Sequence record: NC_031047.1
Length of the DNA: 64,000 bases
Direction: 5' to 3' (one strand)
DNA from: Escherichia phage HY03
Shown here: in pieces, positions 6,987-42,899 of the stretch
How the letters are laid out: every line of letters begins with the position of its first letter
Numbering within the stretch: position 1 is the first letter of the stretch
The notes under the pieces: model-generated
The model's input: the letters and a program-made list of their open reading frames with translations, nothing else
What the model was told of the DNA's origin: nothing
Database searches by the model: none
Position numbers and translations under genes: made by a program

Positions 6987-7990
6987 TTAACTTACCAATT
7001 CAATCCAAGCCGGACGAAGTACATCTTGTACCATTTTAACTAATTCCTTTTTAACCAAAGAAGGATTATCTGCTTGAGTTAGAGTAATACCTTCACGAGA
7101 AGTTTCTTCCAAAATATCTTGAACAGTTAGTCCCATCACCTTTCCAAAATCCTTCGAACCAATTTCACCAATTTTAGAAATAACGTTATTTACTCGGTTC
7201 AGTGTAACGTAGCAAGCTAAAATTCCCACCAATTTGTTATCAGCTTCTGATAGTTCAACTTTAGCTTTAATAGGCTTATCAGACTTTTTCTTTTCACTAA
7301 ATTTGGAATTCTTGCATTTGATGGCTACACGATTTCCATTATGAAGCCAAGAAGGATAACAAGGTTTCAATACATATCCTTCAGCGGTAAATACTTCGCC
7401 TTTGGCTTCAGCTTTCCAAACACATTTGTTAGCGTCAACTAATCCAGCATGGTCTACCGTAAAATTATAATCCTGTACGACAGAATCTAAATCATTTGGC
7501 AATTTAATAAGTTCTTCAAATTTACCACGACCTAAAAGTGGAGCCATTTTAAATTTAAATGTATTACAGAATGATTCCATCATATAATCATCGACATAAG
7601 TCACATCACCACTTTCTGTAGTGACAATAATGTCAAATACATAAAAATCTTTACGCCATAATCGACATTCTTCTGAATGCCAGGTCCAGCGAATTCGCCA
7701 AAGACTTGATAAGATACAACCGCTGAGGTTTCCATAATATCTTGTACTGCTTTAATAGAATCTTCGTAATTCTTTAGAATAATTTCATACCCAAAGAAAT
7801 CTTCAGCAGGAAGAATCGGTCCAGTACGTTTAGCGCAAGTTACTTTATCACGCTCAATAATCAATGAGAAATTTGTGCCGTGAATCTTTTCACGAGCTAC
7901 CCACTCCCCACCAGTCAATCCCAAGCTATAAAGTTTTTCAATAAATTTAGAGTTGTAATGATTTTCAAGACTGCTATACTTTTTAAACAT
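6987..7990 (-). pseudogene. rnlB: RNA ligase 2 (Rnl2) split into two ORFs by a frameshift near 7653-7657
   Basis: N-terminal ORF 7601..7990 carries ligase motif I (REKIHGTN, Lys35); C-terminal ORF 6987..7604 continues in another frame starting at GTG; the switch maps to the GGCGT segment. Confidence 0.6.
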
Positions 7991-19827: not shown

Positions 19828-20922
19828 ATGGCAATTGTTAAAGAAATAACTGCTGATTTAATTAAAAAGTCTGGCGAGACAATTTCAGCTGGACAGAGTA
19901 CTAAATCAGAAGTAGGAACTAAAACATACACAGCCCAGTTTCCAACTGGGCGTGCTAGTGGGAATGACACTACAGGGGACTTCCAGGTAACAGATCTATA
20001 TAAGAATGGATTATTATTTACTGCATACAATATGTCATCTAGGGATTCTGGAAGTCTCAGAACGATGAGATCTAACTACTCTTCTTCATCTTCTAGTATT
20101 TTACGTACAGCCAGAAACACTATCAGTAATACAGTATCAAAACTGTCAAATGGATTAATATCAGATAATAATTCAGGAACAATAAGTAAAGCCCCTGTTG
20201 CAAATATTCTTTTACCAAGATCTAAATCTGATGTTGATACATCATCACATAGATTTAATGATGTTCAAGAAAGTCTTATCAGCAGAGGCGGAGGTACTGC
20301 TACTGGTGTGCTAAGTAATATTGCTTCAACTGCAGTATTTGGGGCACTGGAAAGTATAACACAAGGTATAATGGCTGATAATAATGAGCAGATTTATACT
20401 ACAGCCAGAAGTATGTATGGTGGTGCTGAGAATAGAACTAAAGTGTTTACATGGGATTTGACTCCACGTTCAACAGAAGATTTAATGGCTATTATTAATA
20501 TCTATCAGTATTTTAACTATTTTTCTTATGGTGAAACGGGCAAATCTCAATATGCTGCTGAAATAAAGGGGTATTTAGATGATTGGTATCGTTCTACGTT
20601 AATTGAACCTTTATCTCCGGAAGACGCAGCTAAAAATAAAACACTATTTGAGAAAATGACATCGAGTTTAACTAACGTTTTAGTAGTTTCAAACCCGACA
20701 ATTTGGATGGTGAAAAACTTTGGTGCAACATCTAAGTTTGATGGAAAAACTGAAATATTTGGTCCATGCCAAATACAGAGCATCAGATTTGATAAAACAC
20801 CTAATGGTAACTTTAACGGATTAGCTATTGCTCCAAACCTCCCTAGTACATTTACTCTTGAGATTACTATGAGAGAAATTATCACGTTAAACCGTGCTTC
20901 TTTATATGCGGGGACTTTTTAA
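19828..20922 (+). CDS. 48: baseplate tail-tube junction protein gp48
   Basis: 364-aa ORF in conserved position. Confidence 0.9.
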   Translation: MAIVKEITADLIKKSGETISAGQSTKSEVGTKTYTAQFPTGRASGNDTTGDFQVTDLYKNGLLFTAYNMSSRDSGSLRTMRSNYSSSSSSILRTARNTISNTVSKLSNGLISDNNSGTISKAPVANILLPRSKSDVDTSSHRFNDVQESLISRGGGTATGVLSNIASTAVFGALESITQGIMADNNEQIYTTARSMYGGAENRTKVFTWDLTPRSTEDLMAIINIYQYFNYFSYGETGKSQYAAEIKGYLDDWYRSTLIEPLSPEDAAKNKTLFEKMTSSLTNVLVVSNPTIWMVKNFGATSKFDGKTEIFGPCQIQSIRFDKTPNGNFNGLAIAPNLPSTFTLEITMREIITLNRASLYAGTF

Positions 20923-21845
20923 TGTATTCTTTAGAGGAATTTAATAATCAAGCAATAAACGCAGATTTCCAACGTAATAATATGTTTAGCTGCGTTTTTG
21001 CGACAACTCCATCAACTAAAAGCTCTTCGTTGATAAGTTCAATTAGCAACTTTTCTTATAATAACTTGGGCTTAAATTCAGATTGGTTAGGATTGACTCA
21101 AGACGATATTAATCAGGGAATTACTACGCTAATTACTGCTGGCACACAAAAACTGATAAGAAAATCAGGGGTTAGTAAATATCTTATTGGTGCCATGAGT
21201 CAACGTACAGTTCAAAGCTTATTAGGCTCATTTACAGTTGGTACATATTTAATTGACTTCTTTAACATGGCATATAACTCATCTGGATTGATGATATACT
21301 CCGTAAAAATGCCAGAGAATAGATTATCCTATGAAACTGACTGGAACTATAATTCTCCTAATATTCGCATAACCGGAAGAGAATTAGACCCTTTGGTTAT
21401 TTCATTTAGAATGGATTCAGAAGCTTGTAACTATCGTGCAATGCAAGACTGGGTTAACTCCGTTCAAGACCCAGTAACTGGATTACGCGCTTTGCCGCAA
21501 GATGTCGAGGCAGATATTCAGGTTAATCTTCATTCTCGCAATGGATTGCCTCATACTGCGGTGATGTTCACCGGATGCATTCCAATATCAGTGAGCGCTC
21601 CTGAGTTATCATATGATGGAGATAACCAAATAACTACATTTGATGTTACTTTTGCGTATAGAGTGATGCAGGCTGGAGCGGTTGATAGGCAAGCTGCGCT
21701 TGAATGGCTTGAATCTGCTGCTATAAATGGTATTCAAAGCGTTCTCGGAAATAGTGGAGGTGTTACTGGACTATCTAATTCGCTTTCACGACTTAGTAGA
21801 CTAGGAGGAACCTCAGGAAGCATTTCAAATATTAGTATACTATGA
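20922..21845 (+). CDS. 54: baseplate tail-tube initiator gp54
   Basis: 307-aa ORF in conserved position after gp48. Confidence 0.9.
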   Translation: MYSLEEFNNQAINADFQRNNMFSCVFATTPSTKSSSLISSISNFSYNNLGLNSDWLGLTQDDINQGITTLITAGTQKLIRKSGVSKYLIGAMSQRTVQSLLGSFTVGTYLIDFFNMAYNSSGLMIYSVKMPENRLSYETDWNYNSPNIRITGRELDPLVISFRMDSEACNYRAMQDWVNSVQDPVTGLRALPQDVEADIQVNLHSRNGLPHTAVMFTGCIPISVSAPELSYDGDNQITTFDVTFAYRVMQAGAVDRQAALEWLESAAINGIQSVLGNSGGVTGLSNSLSRLSRLGGTSGSISNISIL

Positions 21846-22239: not shown

Positions 22240-22269
22240 ACTATAACACAACACGAGGGACTTGTAAAC
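22240..22269 (-). promoter_or_regulatory. T4-type early promoter on the minus strand
   Basis: Minus strand reads GTTTAC, 18 nt, TATAGT upstream of the 96-aa gene. Confidence 0.6.
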
Positions 22270-22591
22270 TACATTTTGAACTTTTTAGTACGCGTAATAG
22301 GCATGCGTCGATTTTATACTGTTTCATTGTTTGAAGAGCAGTATCAAAAACAGCATTAATGACACCAATTGGATTTCCACCCAAGTTTTTAAGCTTAACT
22401 AATGATAGTTTCTAGTTTCTCATTAACACCTATCATTACGATATGCATCATTTTGTCGCCTGGTTTAACGTTTTATCTGTATCACCGCCAGAGGTGTATG
22501 TACAAAATCTAAATCCAGGAAGCACGCTTTCTTCGCCGGCTTGAATAGCAAAAATTTGTGGTATTTTATGCTTAGGATTTAAGTTAACAAC

Positions 22592-22607
22592 CGGCGCCGA
22601 AGCGCCG
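22592..22607 (-). other. GC stem-loop with UUCG loop 3' of the 214-aa ORF
   Basis: CGGCGC-CGAA-GCGCCG; no U-tract on either strand. Confidence 0.4.
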
Positions 22608-22636
22608 TCAAATAATTATGTAATAAGTTCCATGAT

Positions 22637-23281
22637 TTATCCTTGAACGAACTTGTAAGGCATGTTTGCAATATCTATGCAAGACGCAATAATTCCAAGA
22701 GATGATTCTACTTTCTGTTTAACATTTGATGAAACAAATGATGCAAAGTCAACTCTGTCTTCTATTTCAATATCACCTGTCATTGCAACTACTTCACCAG
22801 TTTCCATTAGACGGTCACCGTCATAAATTACTGATTCGGTGAGTTCTTCCGTAGTCATAACTTCAGCTTGAATGAGTTTTGTATTATTAAATGTTGTTCC
22901 GTCATTATTAGAAGCATCAGTTATTTTATTAACTTTGACCATCAATCCACGTGGTAGAATAACTTCAGCTTCTGTTGCTATTCCGAGACTTCCTGGATAT
23001 ACAACATTAACTTTATGAGCTCCATCAATTGCCCATCCTATTTGAACTTTAACGTATTCAGGATTTTCTTTATACGCTCTTATTTCGTTTGGATTAATAG
23101 TTATTCCTTCTTCATTTTTATCAACTGTCAATTCATTACGAGCTTCTGGTTCTAAAAGACCGATACCAGCATGTGTAATTCCAAAACGTCCAAAAATGAT
23201 AGGAGTTAAAGAAGTAGATACAAAATTTCTGAAATAGAACACTTTATTTTTAACTAATGCTTCGTATATAGGAGCAGTCAA
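22637..23281 (-). CDS. hypothetical protein, possibly a 5'-truncated gene remnant at the synteny breakpoint
   Basis: 214-aa ORF whose only start is TTG without RBS; in-frame stop 6 codons upstream; abuts the divergent 116-aa gene. Confidence 0.45.
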   Translation of the reverse strand: MTAPIYEALVKNKVFYFRNFVSTSLTPIIFGRFGITHAGIGLLEPEARNELTVDKNEEGITINPNEIRAYKENPEYVKVQIGWAIDGAHKVNVVYPGSLGIATEAEVILPRGLMVKVNKITDASNNDGTTFNNTKLIQAEVMTTEELTESVIYDGDRLMETGEVVAMTGDIEIEDRVDFASFVSSNVKQKVESSLGIIASCIDIANMPYKFVQG

Positions 23282-39995: not shown

Positions 39996-40883
39996 ATGTC
40001 AGTAGCAATTAATAATGTCAATGCAGTAATTAAATCTTTAGTTAATAAAAAATCAAATGAATGGACTGTACTTCAACGCGACGAGTCAGATAAATTTTTT
40101 CATAAATTTAACCCAGTACTAAATTTAAATGTTATTGATAAAGATGTTCATGCTGAAATTTTAGATAAGTTTAAAGTTGATATTGGATTTGGATTAGAAA
40201 AACATTTACAACGAACAAACGGGTCTGGAATGCTTTTATCTAATCGCATCATGAAAGCCCTTAATAAAATTGGAGCATTGTCTCGTATTAATGCGAGTGA
40301 AATCCTTCGCAATTATAATAAAGGATACGACCTTTATGGTCGACTAATGCCGAAATTATCATTTGACCAAATGATCGCAGATTTGTGGGAAAATCAACGA
40401 CGATTATTAGCATTAGGCGCTCGATTGGCTAAAGGTCTAGATAAACAAATGATTTTTAAGACCAATAATACAGAAGACCTTAAATGCTTTAAATTTAGCA
40501 CTCGTGGAGATGATTATTACGTCAGAGCTCACTCTACAGATTATGTTAATATGGGGCATCATCTCTGTTTAGCTTTTGAAATTTTAAAAGAAGCTGGAAC
40601 ATTAGAATATGTGTCTGGTGCTAAATGTCCGATTGGTTCAAATTGCATTTTAATTTATCGCCCGGATGAATCCAGTTCATCTAAATTACCTACAAAACCT
40701 GTACCAGTTCGCAGTAATGAAAAACATTCTGAACAAATTGCTTATTTTAATAAGCAGATTGAAGAGCTAAATATTTCTATTCAGCAATATGATGATGAAA
40801 TTTTCAGACTATCTGGATTGAGTAGTAAAGCTAAATCTGAACGTGAAAAATTAATTAAAATTGTTGATTTACTTAAATCTTAA
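39996..40883 (+). CDS. hypothetical protein with C-terminal coiled coil
   Basis: 295 aa from ATG. Confidence 0.6.
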   Translation: MSVAINNVNAVIKSLVNKKSNEWTVLQRDESDKFFHKFNPVLNLNVIDKDVHAEILDKFKVDIGFGLEKHLQRTNGSGMLLSNRIMKALNKIGALSRINASEILRNYNKGYDLYGRLMPKLSFDQMIADLWENQRRLLALGARLAKGLDKQMIFKTNNTEDLKCFKFSTRGDDYYVRAHSTDYVNMGHHLCLAFEILKEAGTLEYVSGAKCPIGSNCILIYRPDESSSSKLPTKPVPVRSNEKHSEQIAYFNKQIEELNISIQQYDDEIFRLSGLSSKAKSEREKLIKIVDLLKS

Positions 40884-40891
40884 GGAACACC

Positions 40892-41915
40892 ATGAAAACT
40901 CGTTCTCAAATTGAAGATATGGTTCGTAATGCCAGTTATACTCGTGATGTTATGACATTTTTGTGTGAAAATAATTTAGACCCTGATAAAGTTAATCGTG
41001 TTATTTATCACTTTAAGTATACGAATAGCAGTGAATGGTTACGTCATTTTAGTAAAGCGGGGTATATTACACAAATGACTGCTCGTGAACAGCTCACCGA
41101 TTTCTGTAAAACTATTGATTATAAAAATCCTCTATTTGTTCGAGGCGTTGGTCAAAGTAAGACTGATCTATCAACTGGATTTTTTTAATCCAAATCATTA
41201 TCGTCTTGAATGGAGATTTATTGCTTTATTCCGTAAACAATTAAAGCAAATTTTGTCTACTGCTAGTCGATTAAAAGGCTCTGATATTAACTTAAAGAAT
41301 CTGAAATTTGATGGTTATACTCTTCAGATGGAAGTAAGACCGTTAAAAGAAAATAATAGAACTGCACGAATTAGCTTTAAACCTAATACAAAAAATTCTC
41401 TTTCAATTTGCGAATGCCTTAAATCGCAGTTGACAGAAGCATTTAAGTATATGGATGTTGTTGCTGCTGTTCAATCTAAGATTTTACCTCGTTTTGAGCG
41501 AAATTGGGAACATACAACAACATATGAACTTGATATGATCGTTTCATTTAAATATGAATTTTTGAGAAAGGATGAAATTGTTCAAGAGAAAAAGCAGGAA
41601 GTGCAAGATACCTTAAATTCATCTAATTACTCATCAAACGATCCTAAATTTTGGATGTATAGCTCAAGCAATATAGATGCATGTAAACTTAATAAAGTGA
41701 GTTTTCTTCCTACTGAAAATTCAAATTTTAAACCTGTTGAAAAATGGCACGCGGATGCGATTGAGAAGTCTATCAAGGCAGTAGATGATGAACTCGTTAA
41801 AGCAACTAATGAAGTGTTAGAAGCTGAAAAGATGCTAGAAAAAGCTCAAGAAAAAGTCAAAAATCTCACGAAGCAACGTTCTAAACTGAACAATGCACTA
41901 AATGCACTAAACTAG
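40892..41915 (+). pseudogene. hypothetical gene interrupted by a frameshift at a T7 homopolymer (41180-41186)
   Basis: ORF 40892..41188 and overlapping ORF 41085..41915 are in adjacent frames; deleting one T fuses them into one reading frame of about 337 aa; downstream frame has no ATG until 41328. Confidence 0.5.
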
Positions 41916-41944
41916 TTTACTTCGCCACAAGGATGTGGTATAAT
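41915..41944 (+). promoter_or_regulatory. early promoter (GTTTAC, 18 nt, TATAAT)
   Basis: Extended -10 TGTGGTATAAT. Confidence 0.7.
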
Positions 41945-41972
41945 GTTCTTACTTTCTACTGAGGAGATTAAT

Positions 41973-42899
41973 ATGACTCGTAAACATTATATTGATTATT
42001 TTGACAGTCTTATTACTAAACACCGTAATTATCAGATCGGACGCAGAGCAGTAATCAATAATATTCTTCGTGATTTCCTTCAATATGTTGGCCAGGAAAA
42101 TCATATCTGTAAAGATACTCAAAACGCTTATTCTCATTCGTTAGGCAATTTGCTTCAATGGTTTAAACGTTCTCGTCTGTTATCTTCTACTGTAGCTAGT
42201 GATAACATTAAAAACTTTATGAAGCCGAGCTTCATTAAATCTGAGACATCTATAACCGATTTGGTTGAATTTACTATTGTTAACGATGTTAAAAAGACCC
42301 ATTTGGCTGATTGGTTATCTACCATTCCCGAAACTAAATTTGCTGATAAATTCGCTTGTCAATTCAATGACCAAGTGAATATGCTTTTTAAGCATGCTCG
42401 TAAACTATTTACCGCGGGCGATGACCGTACAAATACAGTTCATGTTAAGGATTGGGTTATTGCTGATGAAGTAACACGCAAGCCAGGTGGTTCATCAGTA
42501 TTAATTAATATCCAGGTTCCTTATTATTACTCACATAATCTCGGCACCATGACAGCTAGAGAAATTAATAAGCACAACAAAATTATTCGTTCGTTGTCTT
42601 ATAAACTCTGCACGATGGTGGAGATGATGGACGTAGTGGAAATGTATGACGAAACCGAAGATAATGGTTCAATGCTGTACAGTTCACGCATTCTAATTAA
42701 ACTGAAGAACCCTAATACATATAAGCAAGTTGTAAAAGAACCTAAAGCAGAAAAGGCTGATAATCTGAGTGAAGAACGTGAATATCTCAATGCTCGTTTG
42801 ATTGAAGTTGAAGCCCAAATTGCAGAACACACCAAATTGTTAAAAGCTCTTAATGCAAAAGCAAATGGTTTACGCAATGCTATTGAGGTATTGAAATGA
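41973..42899 (+). CDS. hypothetical protein with C-terminal coiled coil
   Basis: 308 aa from ATG with GAGGAG RBS. Confidence 0.6.
   Translation: MTRKHYIDYFDSLITKHRNYQIGRRAVINNILRDFLQYVGQENHICKDTQNAYSHSLGNLLQWFKRSRLLSSTVASDNIKNFMKPSFIKSETSITDLVEFTIVNDVKKTHLADWLSTIPETKFADKFACQFNDQVNMLFKHARKLFTAGDDRTNTVHVKDWVIADEVTRKPGGSSVLINIQVPYYYSHNLGTMTAREINKHNKIIRSLSYKLCTMVEMMDVVEMYDETEDNGSMLYSSRILIKLKNPNTYKQVVKEPKAEKADNLSEEREYLNARLIEVEAQIAEHTKLLKALNAKANGLRNAIEVLK

Follow-up and report, generated by a model that had tools for sequence, protein, structure and literature searches.

The DNA analysed here is a stretch of 64,000 nucleotides (the window) from a T4-like phage (Tequatrovirus), which showed approximately 96–97% identity to the nearest deposited genomes, ELT1, JEP6, CE1, and AV121, and was the same phage as none of them. 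The locus under study lies within the nrdC.11–nrdC accessory cluster, with the thioredoxin gene nrdC and endonuclease VII following downstream, and the features predicted at the locus and on either side of it are collected in Table 1.

Two overlapping open reading frames occupy the region of nrdC.5. The first begins with an ATG codon preceded by the Shine-Dalgarno sequence AAGGAA (40882–40887), which overlaps the stop codon of nrdC.6, and its 3' end reads GGA TTT TTT TAA. The last base of the run of seven T's (T7; in what follows, T6 and T8 denote runs of six and eight T's, and the phage of that name is written as phage T6) is also the first base of the TAA stop codon at 41186–41188. The original prediction, that the first ORF stops at a TAA directly behind seven consecutive T's, was thus borne out at the positions it gave. 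The second ORF continues to 41915 in the +1 frame and overlaps the first; a GTG at 41085 was its start in the ORF list. No in-frame ATG, GTG, or TTG codon with a Shine-Dalgarno-like sequence ahead of it could be found within 41085–41400, and the earliest in-frame ATG corresponds to residue 146 of the repaired protein. The 3' part of nrdC.5 has neither its own start nor its own ribosome-binding site, and the claim that this frame has no usable start therefore holds in practice. Removal of one T from the run produced an ORF of 1023 nt encoding 340 amino acids (AA), which agrees with the single frame that had been proposed and corrects its estimated length of about 337 AA. The flanking genes are of similar size, as had been noted (295 AA for nrdC.6 and 308 AA for nrdC.3).

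Table 1. Predicted features at the nrdC.5 locus, in window coordinates
Feature	Position	Strand	Basis
nrdC.6 ortholog, 295 AA, upstream neighbour	39996–40883	+	Colinear with annotated nrdC.6 of RB3; phrog_2257, E = 2e-149
nrdC.5 ortholog, 5' part: codons 1–98 and premature TAA	40892–41188	+	Same register as residues 1–98 of 340-AA orthologs
T7 homopolymer with putative one-base insertion	41180–41186	+	Ortholog alignments; private against three relatives
nrdC.5 ortholog, 3' part: codons 99–340 and TAG stop	41187–41915	+	+1 frame relative to the start codon; DUF7235 match runs through
Early-promoter-like site, TTTACT-N17-TG-TATAAT	41916–41944	+	Promoter scan, 10/12 matches, extended -10
nrdC.3 ortholog, 308 AA	41973–42899	+	phrog_1435 match

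Identity of the interrupted gene

Judged from sequence comparison, the region 40892–41915 is a single ortholog of T4 nrdC.5 that has been broken by one extra T, as the idea of one accessory gene split at a homopolymer had anticipated. In a global alignment of the region with the annotated nrdC.5 genes of UPWr_E4 and RB3, the only gap was the 1-nt gap of the extra T. The repaired 340-AA protein had 90% sequence identity over 340 residues to NrdC.5 of T4 (NP_049703, 340 AA) and 95% to the SG1 ortholog, compared with approximately 22% to NrdC.4. The Pfam domain DUF7235 (PF23882) matched residues 1–340 of the repaired protein with profile positions 1–307 of 307 (406.3 bits against a gathering threshold of 30 bits; E = 1.2e-121), and phrog_2351, the family of T4 nrdC.5, matched it over the full length (E = 8.7e-166). 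The position in the cluster, between nrdC.6 and nrdC.4/nrdC.3, is the same as in RB3 and T4, with which the locus is colinear. T4 differs from the window in having TTTTTC, with five T's, at the corresponding site, and the frame in the window is broken after codon 98. No intact single ORF of about 335–342 AA is present at the locus, and the sequence as written represents a disrupted allele of this family.

The structure of the protein was modelled with the sequence of the SG1 ortholog. The only part predicted with confidence was a long C-terminal helix (residues 281–339), with an overall pLDDT of 54 and a pTM of 0.33; this helix is compatible with the earlier remark that the genes of this region end in coiled coils.

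Two genuine separate genes, of 98 AA and approximately 240–276 AA, would be another way to read the two ORFs, as would a deletion hybrid of nrdC.5 and nrdC.4, and we regard this pair of explanations as barely credible. A fusion was suspected at first, as the relatives are approximately 1,050 bases longer across the region, and the GTG at 41085 offers the downstream ORF a nominal start. Against this, the window is colinear between 40600 and 41992 with the whole of nrdC.5, with one 1-nt gap, and the missing kilobase corresponds to a clean loss of nrdC.4 further downstream. The BLAST coordinates ruled out the deletion hybrid, the gene being colinear with nrdC.5 alone, and the marked difference in identity to NrdC.5 and NrdC.4 points the same way. 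Two independent genes are further opposed by the lack of any start codon with a Shine-Dalgarno sequence ahead in the downstream ORF and by the single Pfam domain that spans the break. Orthologs consisting of two genes, which had been named as the observation that would overturn the prediction, were not what the databases held: in a database of 5.8 billion proteins, 52 of the 56 homolog clusters had a length of 330–342 AA, and approximately 490 phage records carried one colinear nrdC.5 gene. No ortholog split at the T run could be found among the homolog clusters, including the four short ones (P0053, P0054, P0055, and P0056). Members of P0053 and P0054 are truncated near residue 245, and P0056 is a fusion of NrdC.5 with NrdC.3. 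These short homologs were considered as natural two-gene forms and rejected, being broken elsewhere than at the T run or fused to NrdC.3.

The neighbouring gene nrdC.4 (approximately 1 kb) is absent from the window, and its promoter, ribosome-binding site, and first codons (ATGACTCGTAA) join nrdC.3 in frame. The promoter-like site directly behind the nrdC.5 stop codon corresponds to the nrdC.4 promoter of the relatives and is conserved in JEP6 and CE1. The deletion, in the region 41916–41995, ran through the microhomology ATGA(AA)ACTCGTAA common to the 5' ends of the genes; the paralogs nrdC.3, nrdC.4, and nrdC.5 all begin with M(K)TR. The same nrdC.4-less junction was present in CE1, PD112, and about 25 other Tequatrovirus records. 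Natural variation accounts for the loss of nrdC.4, which has no connection with the nrdC.5 frameshift. In ELT1 (22306–23236; window position 42510), nrdC.3 is annotated as two CDS because of a 4-nt duplication of TTAA that is absent from the window, JEP6, and CE1. The split nrdC.3 of ELT1, the nrdC.5 truncations and fusions elsewhere, and the loss of nrdC.4 together strengthen the case that breakage, deletion, and recombination recur naturally in the nrdC.3–nrdC.6 accessory cluster.

Rarity and age of the extra T

The orthologous site carries a T6 run (GGA TTT TTT AAT) in JEP6, UPWr_E4, CE1, T2, and phage T6, and TTTTTC (T5C) in T4, RB3, SG1, and ELT1. The T7 allele was searched for by megablast using a 30-mer probe in which a seed is possible only if the run has at least seven T's, and neither the 50,697 phage records nor the set of 5,426 complete E. 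coli genomes gave a match. Exact-pattern scans did not detect it in IMG/VR, JGI metagenome contigs, or GTDB genomes; the control pattern for T6 gave two matches in IMG/VR. Control 31-mers retrieved 69 records with an exact T6 match and 21 with an exact T5C match. The exact 98-AA product was likewise not on record, including in the gene-position index.

Within the window, the tract is the longest T run and the sole T run of at least seven in 64 kb, and it goes beyond what chance would explain. Under a first-order Markov model of the whole window, 65 ± 7.5 A/T runs of at least seven bases were expected and three were observed; the corresponding figures were 66 observed against 176 expected for runs of at least six bases, and none against 24.5 for runs of at least eight. 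Such a strong depletion of long A/T runs would be expected if tracts prone to slippage were selected against in this AT-rich genome. On the basis of these sequence searches, the T7 allele is taken to be private to this sequence and atypical for the genome.

The gene showed no other decay. When the frame is restored, comparison with JEP6 over the 242 codons behind the break gives 26 synonymous and 11 nonsynonymous substitutions (dN/dS of 0.107), and only two substitutions in the whole gene were absent from all of the five orthologs compared. No further stop codons or indels were present in the restored nrdC.5, and JEP6 has an identical local context with T6. Because no other decay could be observed, the extra T is, as far as the sequence allows it to be dated, either very recent or artefactual.

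Private indels were listed after alignment of the entire window, block by block, with three relatives each. Among the A/T runs of at least six bases with an aligned relative, the length agreed with at least one relative in 64 of 65 cases, the T7 run of nrdC.5 being the sole discordant one; both A7 runs of the window are conserved in the relatives. Such agreement argues against a sequencing platform with systematic homopolymer errors.

The window carries three further private indels that disrupt a frame, none of them in a homopolymer. The gene for RNA ligase 2 (rnlB, gene 24.1; 6987–7990 on the complementary strand) has lost 1 nt near 7654 beside a base substitution (GGTGATAAAG changed to GGCG-TAAAG), which leaves two pieces of 129 AA and 205 AA where AV121, phage T6, and ESh30 have one ORF of 334 AA. 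The gp54 gene (20922–21845) contains a 2-nt insertion at 21835 (ATTAATAC changed to ATTAGTATAC), which leads to an early stop; the product has 307 AA compared with 321 AA in the same three phages, with the last 14 residues lost, and the original frame downstream is still open. In T4, gp54 is the baseplate-tail tube initiator and is essential. Downstream of alt, an alt-like remnant (22250–22640, complementary strand) has a 7-nt insertion at approximately 22408 and holds no ORF of at least 50 AA; its counterparts are a 129-AA CDS in AV121 and a full paralog of 685 AA in phage T6, and it looks like a decaying pseudogene. Whether lesions fall in essential or non-essential genes was considered as a test for sequencing error, and it proved uninformative, three coding lesions being too few.

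The window is also composed of two blocks. Positions 1–23280 form a late-gene block (gp19/20 through gp54 to alt) which matches 97.4–123.0 kb of phage T6 on the forward strand, and positions 23281–64000 form an early block which begins shortly after the tRNA cluster and reaches gp43; tRNA genes were not present in the window. In T4, phage T6, and AV121 a long distance separates the two blocks, and they lie on opposite strands. The join at 23280/23281 is abrupt, with a 1-nt overlap, and lies 2 nt ahead of the ATG of the next gene, and alt is cut by it to its C-terminal 214 codons. Either an inversion of approximately 50 kb has its breakpoint here, or the junction is an artefact of scaffolding or chimeric assembly.

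These observations bear on whether the seventh T exists in the phage. A homopolymer miscall or assembly artefact, in which the true sequence is T6 and nrdC.5 is an intact gene of 340 AA, is a serious possibility that we place somewhat short of an even chance. A base-calling error would be expected to show up in just this way, as an allele that no other genome shares. The gene is undamaged in every other respect, which fits an artefact equally well, and no T run in the 64 kb is longer than this one, where errors are likeliest. The contig also has other suspicious features, namely the 23280 junction, the 2-nt insertion in gp54, and the split rnlB. On the other side, had the platform tended to misjudge homopolymers, far more discordant lengths would be expected among the 425 runs of at least five bases, and the other private lesions are complex and have no error signature in common with the T7 run. 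Non-homopolymer indels are rarely made by sequencing platforms, and the lineage does appear to carry real indels; alternatively, the private lesions and the 23280 junction together could reflect imperfect assembly. Further, nrdC.5 is dispensable on hosts without the Dsr1 defence system and has been broken independently in other genomes.

A real mutation, in which a T6 run in nrdC.5 has recently expanded by one T to leave a null or hypomorphic allele, is the main reading, to which a probability of roughly 0.5 is assigned. We lean slightly towards such a loss-of-function allele over a sequencing error. Of the three options raised in the original prediction, sequencing error and a pseudogene or null allele both stay in play, and a slippage-prone on/off site was disfavoured, since T7 could be found nowhere else.

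Possible slippage and recoding at the T7 tract

As read from the sequence, the wild-type residues G-F-F-N would be recreated exactly if the polymerase left out one U, or if tRNA-Phe slipped by +1 from UUU onto the overlapping UUU while UAA occupied the A site. T4-type phages use E. coli RNA polymerase. The length of the tract equals the published minimum of seven T's for slippage by this polymerase (Koscielniak et al. 2018, PMC6260861), which implies a low efficiency. In that study, transcript indels at a T7 tract amounted to 0.75%, and the rescue of a reporter by insertion reached approximately 5% at T7 and 10% at T8. The direction needed here, one U lost, was quantified only at T8, where rescue by deletion was 10% (PMC6260861). 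Frameshifting by +1 at shifty stops has also been documented, and the rescue of homopolymer 'savior' indels has been reviewed (PMC5009743). It is plausible from the published reporter data that a few percent of full-length protein at most would be made from the T7 allele, either by RNA polymerase dropping a U or by the +1 slip of tRNA-Phe.

Comparison with known systems helps to place such a leak. In the frameshift hot spots of the Streisinger type in T4 rII and e, single bases are gained in a run and high reversion is expected, as would be the case here; the difference is that the event in the window is deduced by setting it beside relatives that carry T6, such as JEP6. The G7 'savior indel' of the herpes simplex virus thymidine kinase gene (PMC5009743) resembles it, as does non-programmed slippage of E. 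coli RNA polymerase at T7/T8 tracts (PMC6260861): in each a homopolymer indel nominally kills a gene, and the tract is of a length at which a minority of transcripts or ribosomes may regain the frame, which in the window would yield the wild-type protein exactly. The +1 frameshift of prfB (RF2) at CUU UGA shares a slippery P-site codon beside a stop, UUU in the present case, and +1 re-pairing to an identical codon. Unlike prfB, which has an upstream Shine-Dalgarno stimulator, the window has only GGA, and its site is unconserved, private, and in a UAAU context. UAAU is a strong terminator context in E. coli and would therefore limit ribosomal +1 rescue.

An evolved contingency or recoding site, that is, a reversible on/off switch or programmed +1 or transcriptional slippage that tunes NrdC.5, is very unlikely. 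It would account well for a tract at the exact threshold of polymerase slippage, for a precise wild-type product after a +1 shift at UUU-UAA or the loss of one U, and for a target with an anti-defence role, useful on some hosts and not on others. The low standing given to it rests above all on the fact that no relative conserves the arrangement. A conserved slippery site or two-frame arrangement was not detected, with no T7 in the phage, IMG/VR, metagenome, GTDB, and E. coli collections, and tract-length polymorphism among isolates was limited to T6 or T5C, with T7 in the window alone; the orthologs are single intact ORFs, and no collection yielded a T7 or T8 allele, compared with the 69 exact T6 and 21 exact T5C records. 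The genome itself strongly avoids long A/T runs, and T4, in which the function has been demonstrated, has an interrupted run. A search for stimulatory RNA structure across 41150–41270 gave no significant result (z = -0.94), a 6-bp hairpin being the only one to embrace the run, and no proper Shine-Dalgarno stimulator was present upstream, where GGA is the sole similar element. The leak, if it occurs, is a sequence accident and not an evolved switch.

Predicted effect on NrdC.5 and host range

The function of nrdC.5 has been studied in T4. A T4 clone with a deletion that includes nrdC.5 could not infect ECOR17 or MG1655 carrying dsr1, a sirtuin defence system, and expression of T4 nrdC.5 restored infection of Dsr1 hosts (Srikant, Guegler and Laub 2022, PMC9391042). 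Without nrdC.5, T4 is still able to grow on MG1655, though not where dsr1 is present (PMC9391042). In the literature, this single paper was found to tie nrdC.5 to a function, and none was found on DUF7235. The anti-Dsr1 activity was demonstrated for the T4 protein and not for the allele in the window; from the 90% identity, the window gene would be expected to have the same role as NrdC.5 of T4.

The following course of events would explain the locus under the main reading. A synonymous change from TTC to TTT relative to the T4-type alleles would have created the T6 tract, and Streisinger-type replication slippage on that tract, within codons 97–98, would then have added the seventh T. Since the extra T makes TTT TTT TAA, the ribosome would stop after residue 98 without adding an aberrant tail, and the 242 remaining codons, which encode the central part and the long C-terminal helix, would be out of frame and without a start. 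The resulting allele is likely to be null or strongly hypomorphic; it would be neutral in the absence of Dsr1 and would restrict the infection of Dsr1 hosts. Reversion from T7 to T6 would be frequent. A strong early-promoter-like site follows nrdC.5 directly, and nrdC.3 should therefore escape polar effects.

One could go further and see in T7 a 'standby' form of the anti-defence gene that leaks and is easily reversed. On hosts without Dsr1, NrdC.5 would hardly be made, polymerase slippage at the threshold tract length or a +1 shift at UUU-UAA would provide a small supply of the exact wild-type product, and T6 revertants, expected at hot-spot frequency, would sweep on a Dsr1 host. We consider this far-fetched; if it were true, it would represent natural contingency-locus behaviour in a counter-defence gene of a lytic phage.

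Should the extra T be an artefact, the record needs correcting and the annotation becomes one gene of 340 AA. Either way no new biological principle is involved, the gene being known and the homopolymer frameshift of a textbook kind, with the T4 hot spots of the Streisinger model and leaky 'savior indel' alleles as its nearest parallels. If the mutation is real, this phage is a Tequatrovirus strain that is naturally nrdC.5-null and nrdC.4-less. The host-range prediction that follows is that E. coli carrying Dsr1 should block the phage unless it reverts, and such sensitivity to Dsr1 would be relevant to the choice of T4-like phages for therapy cocktails.
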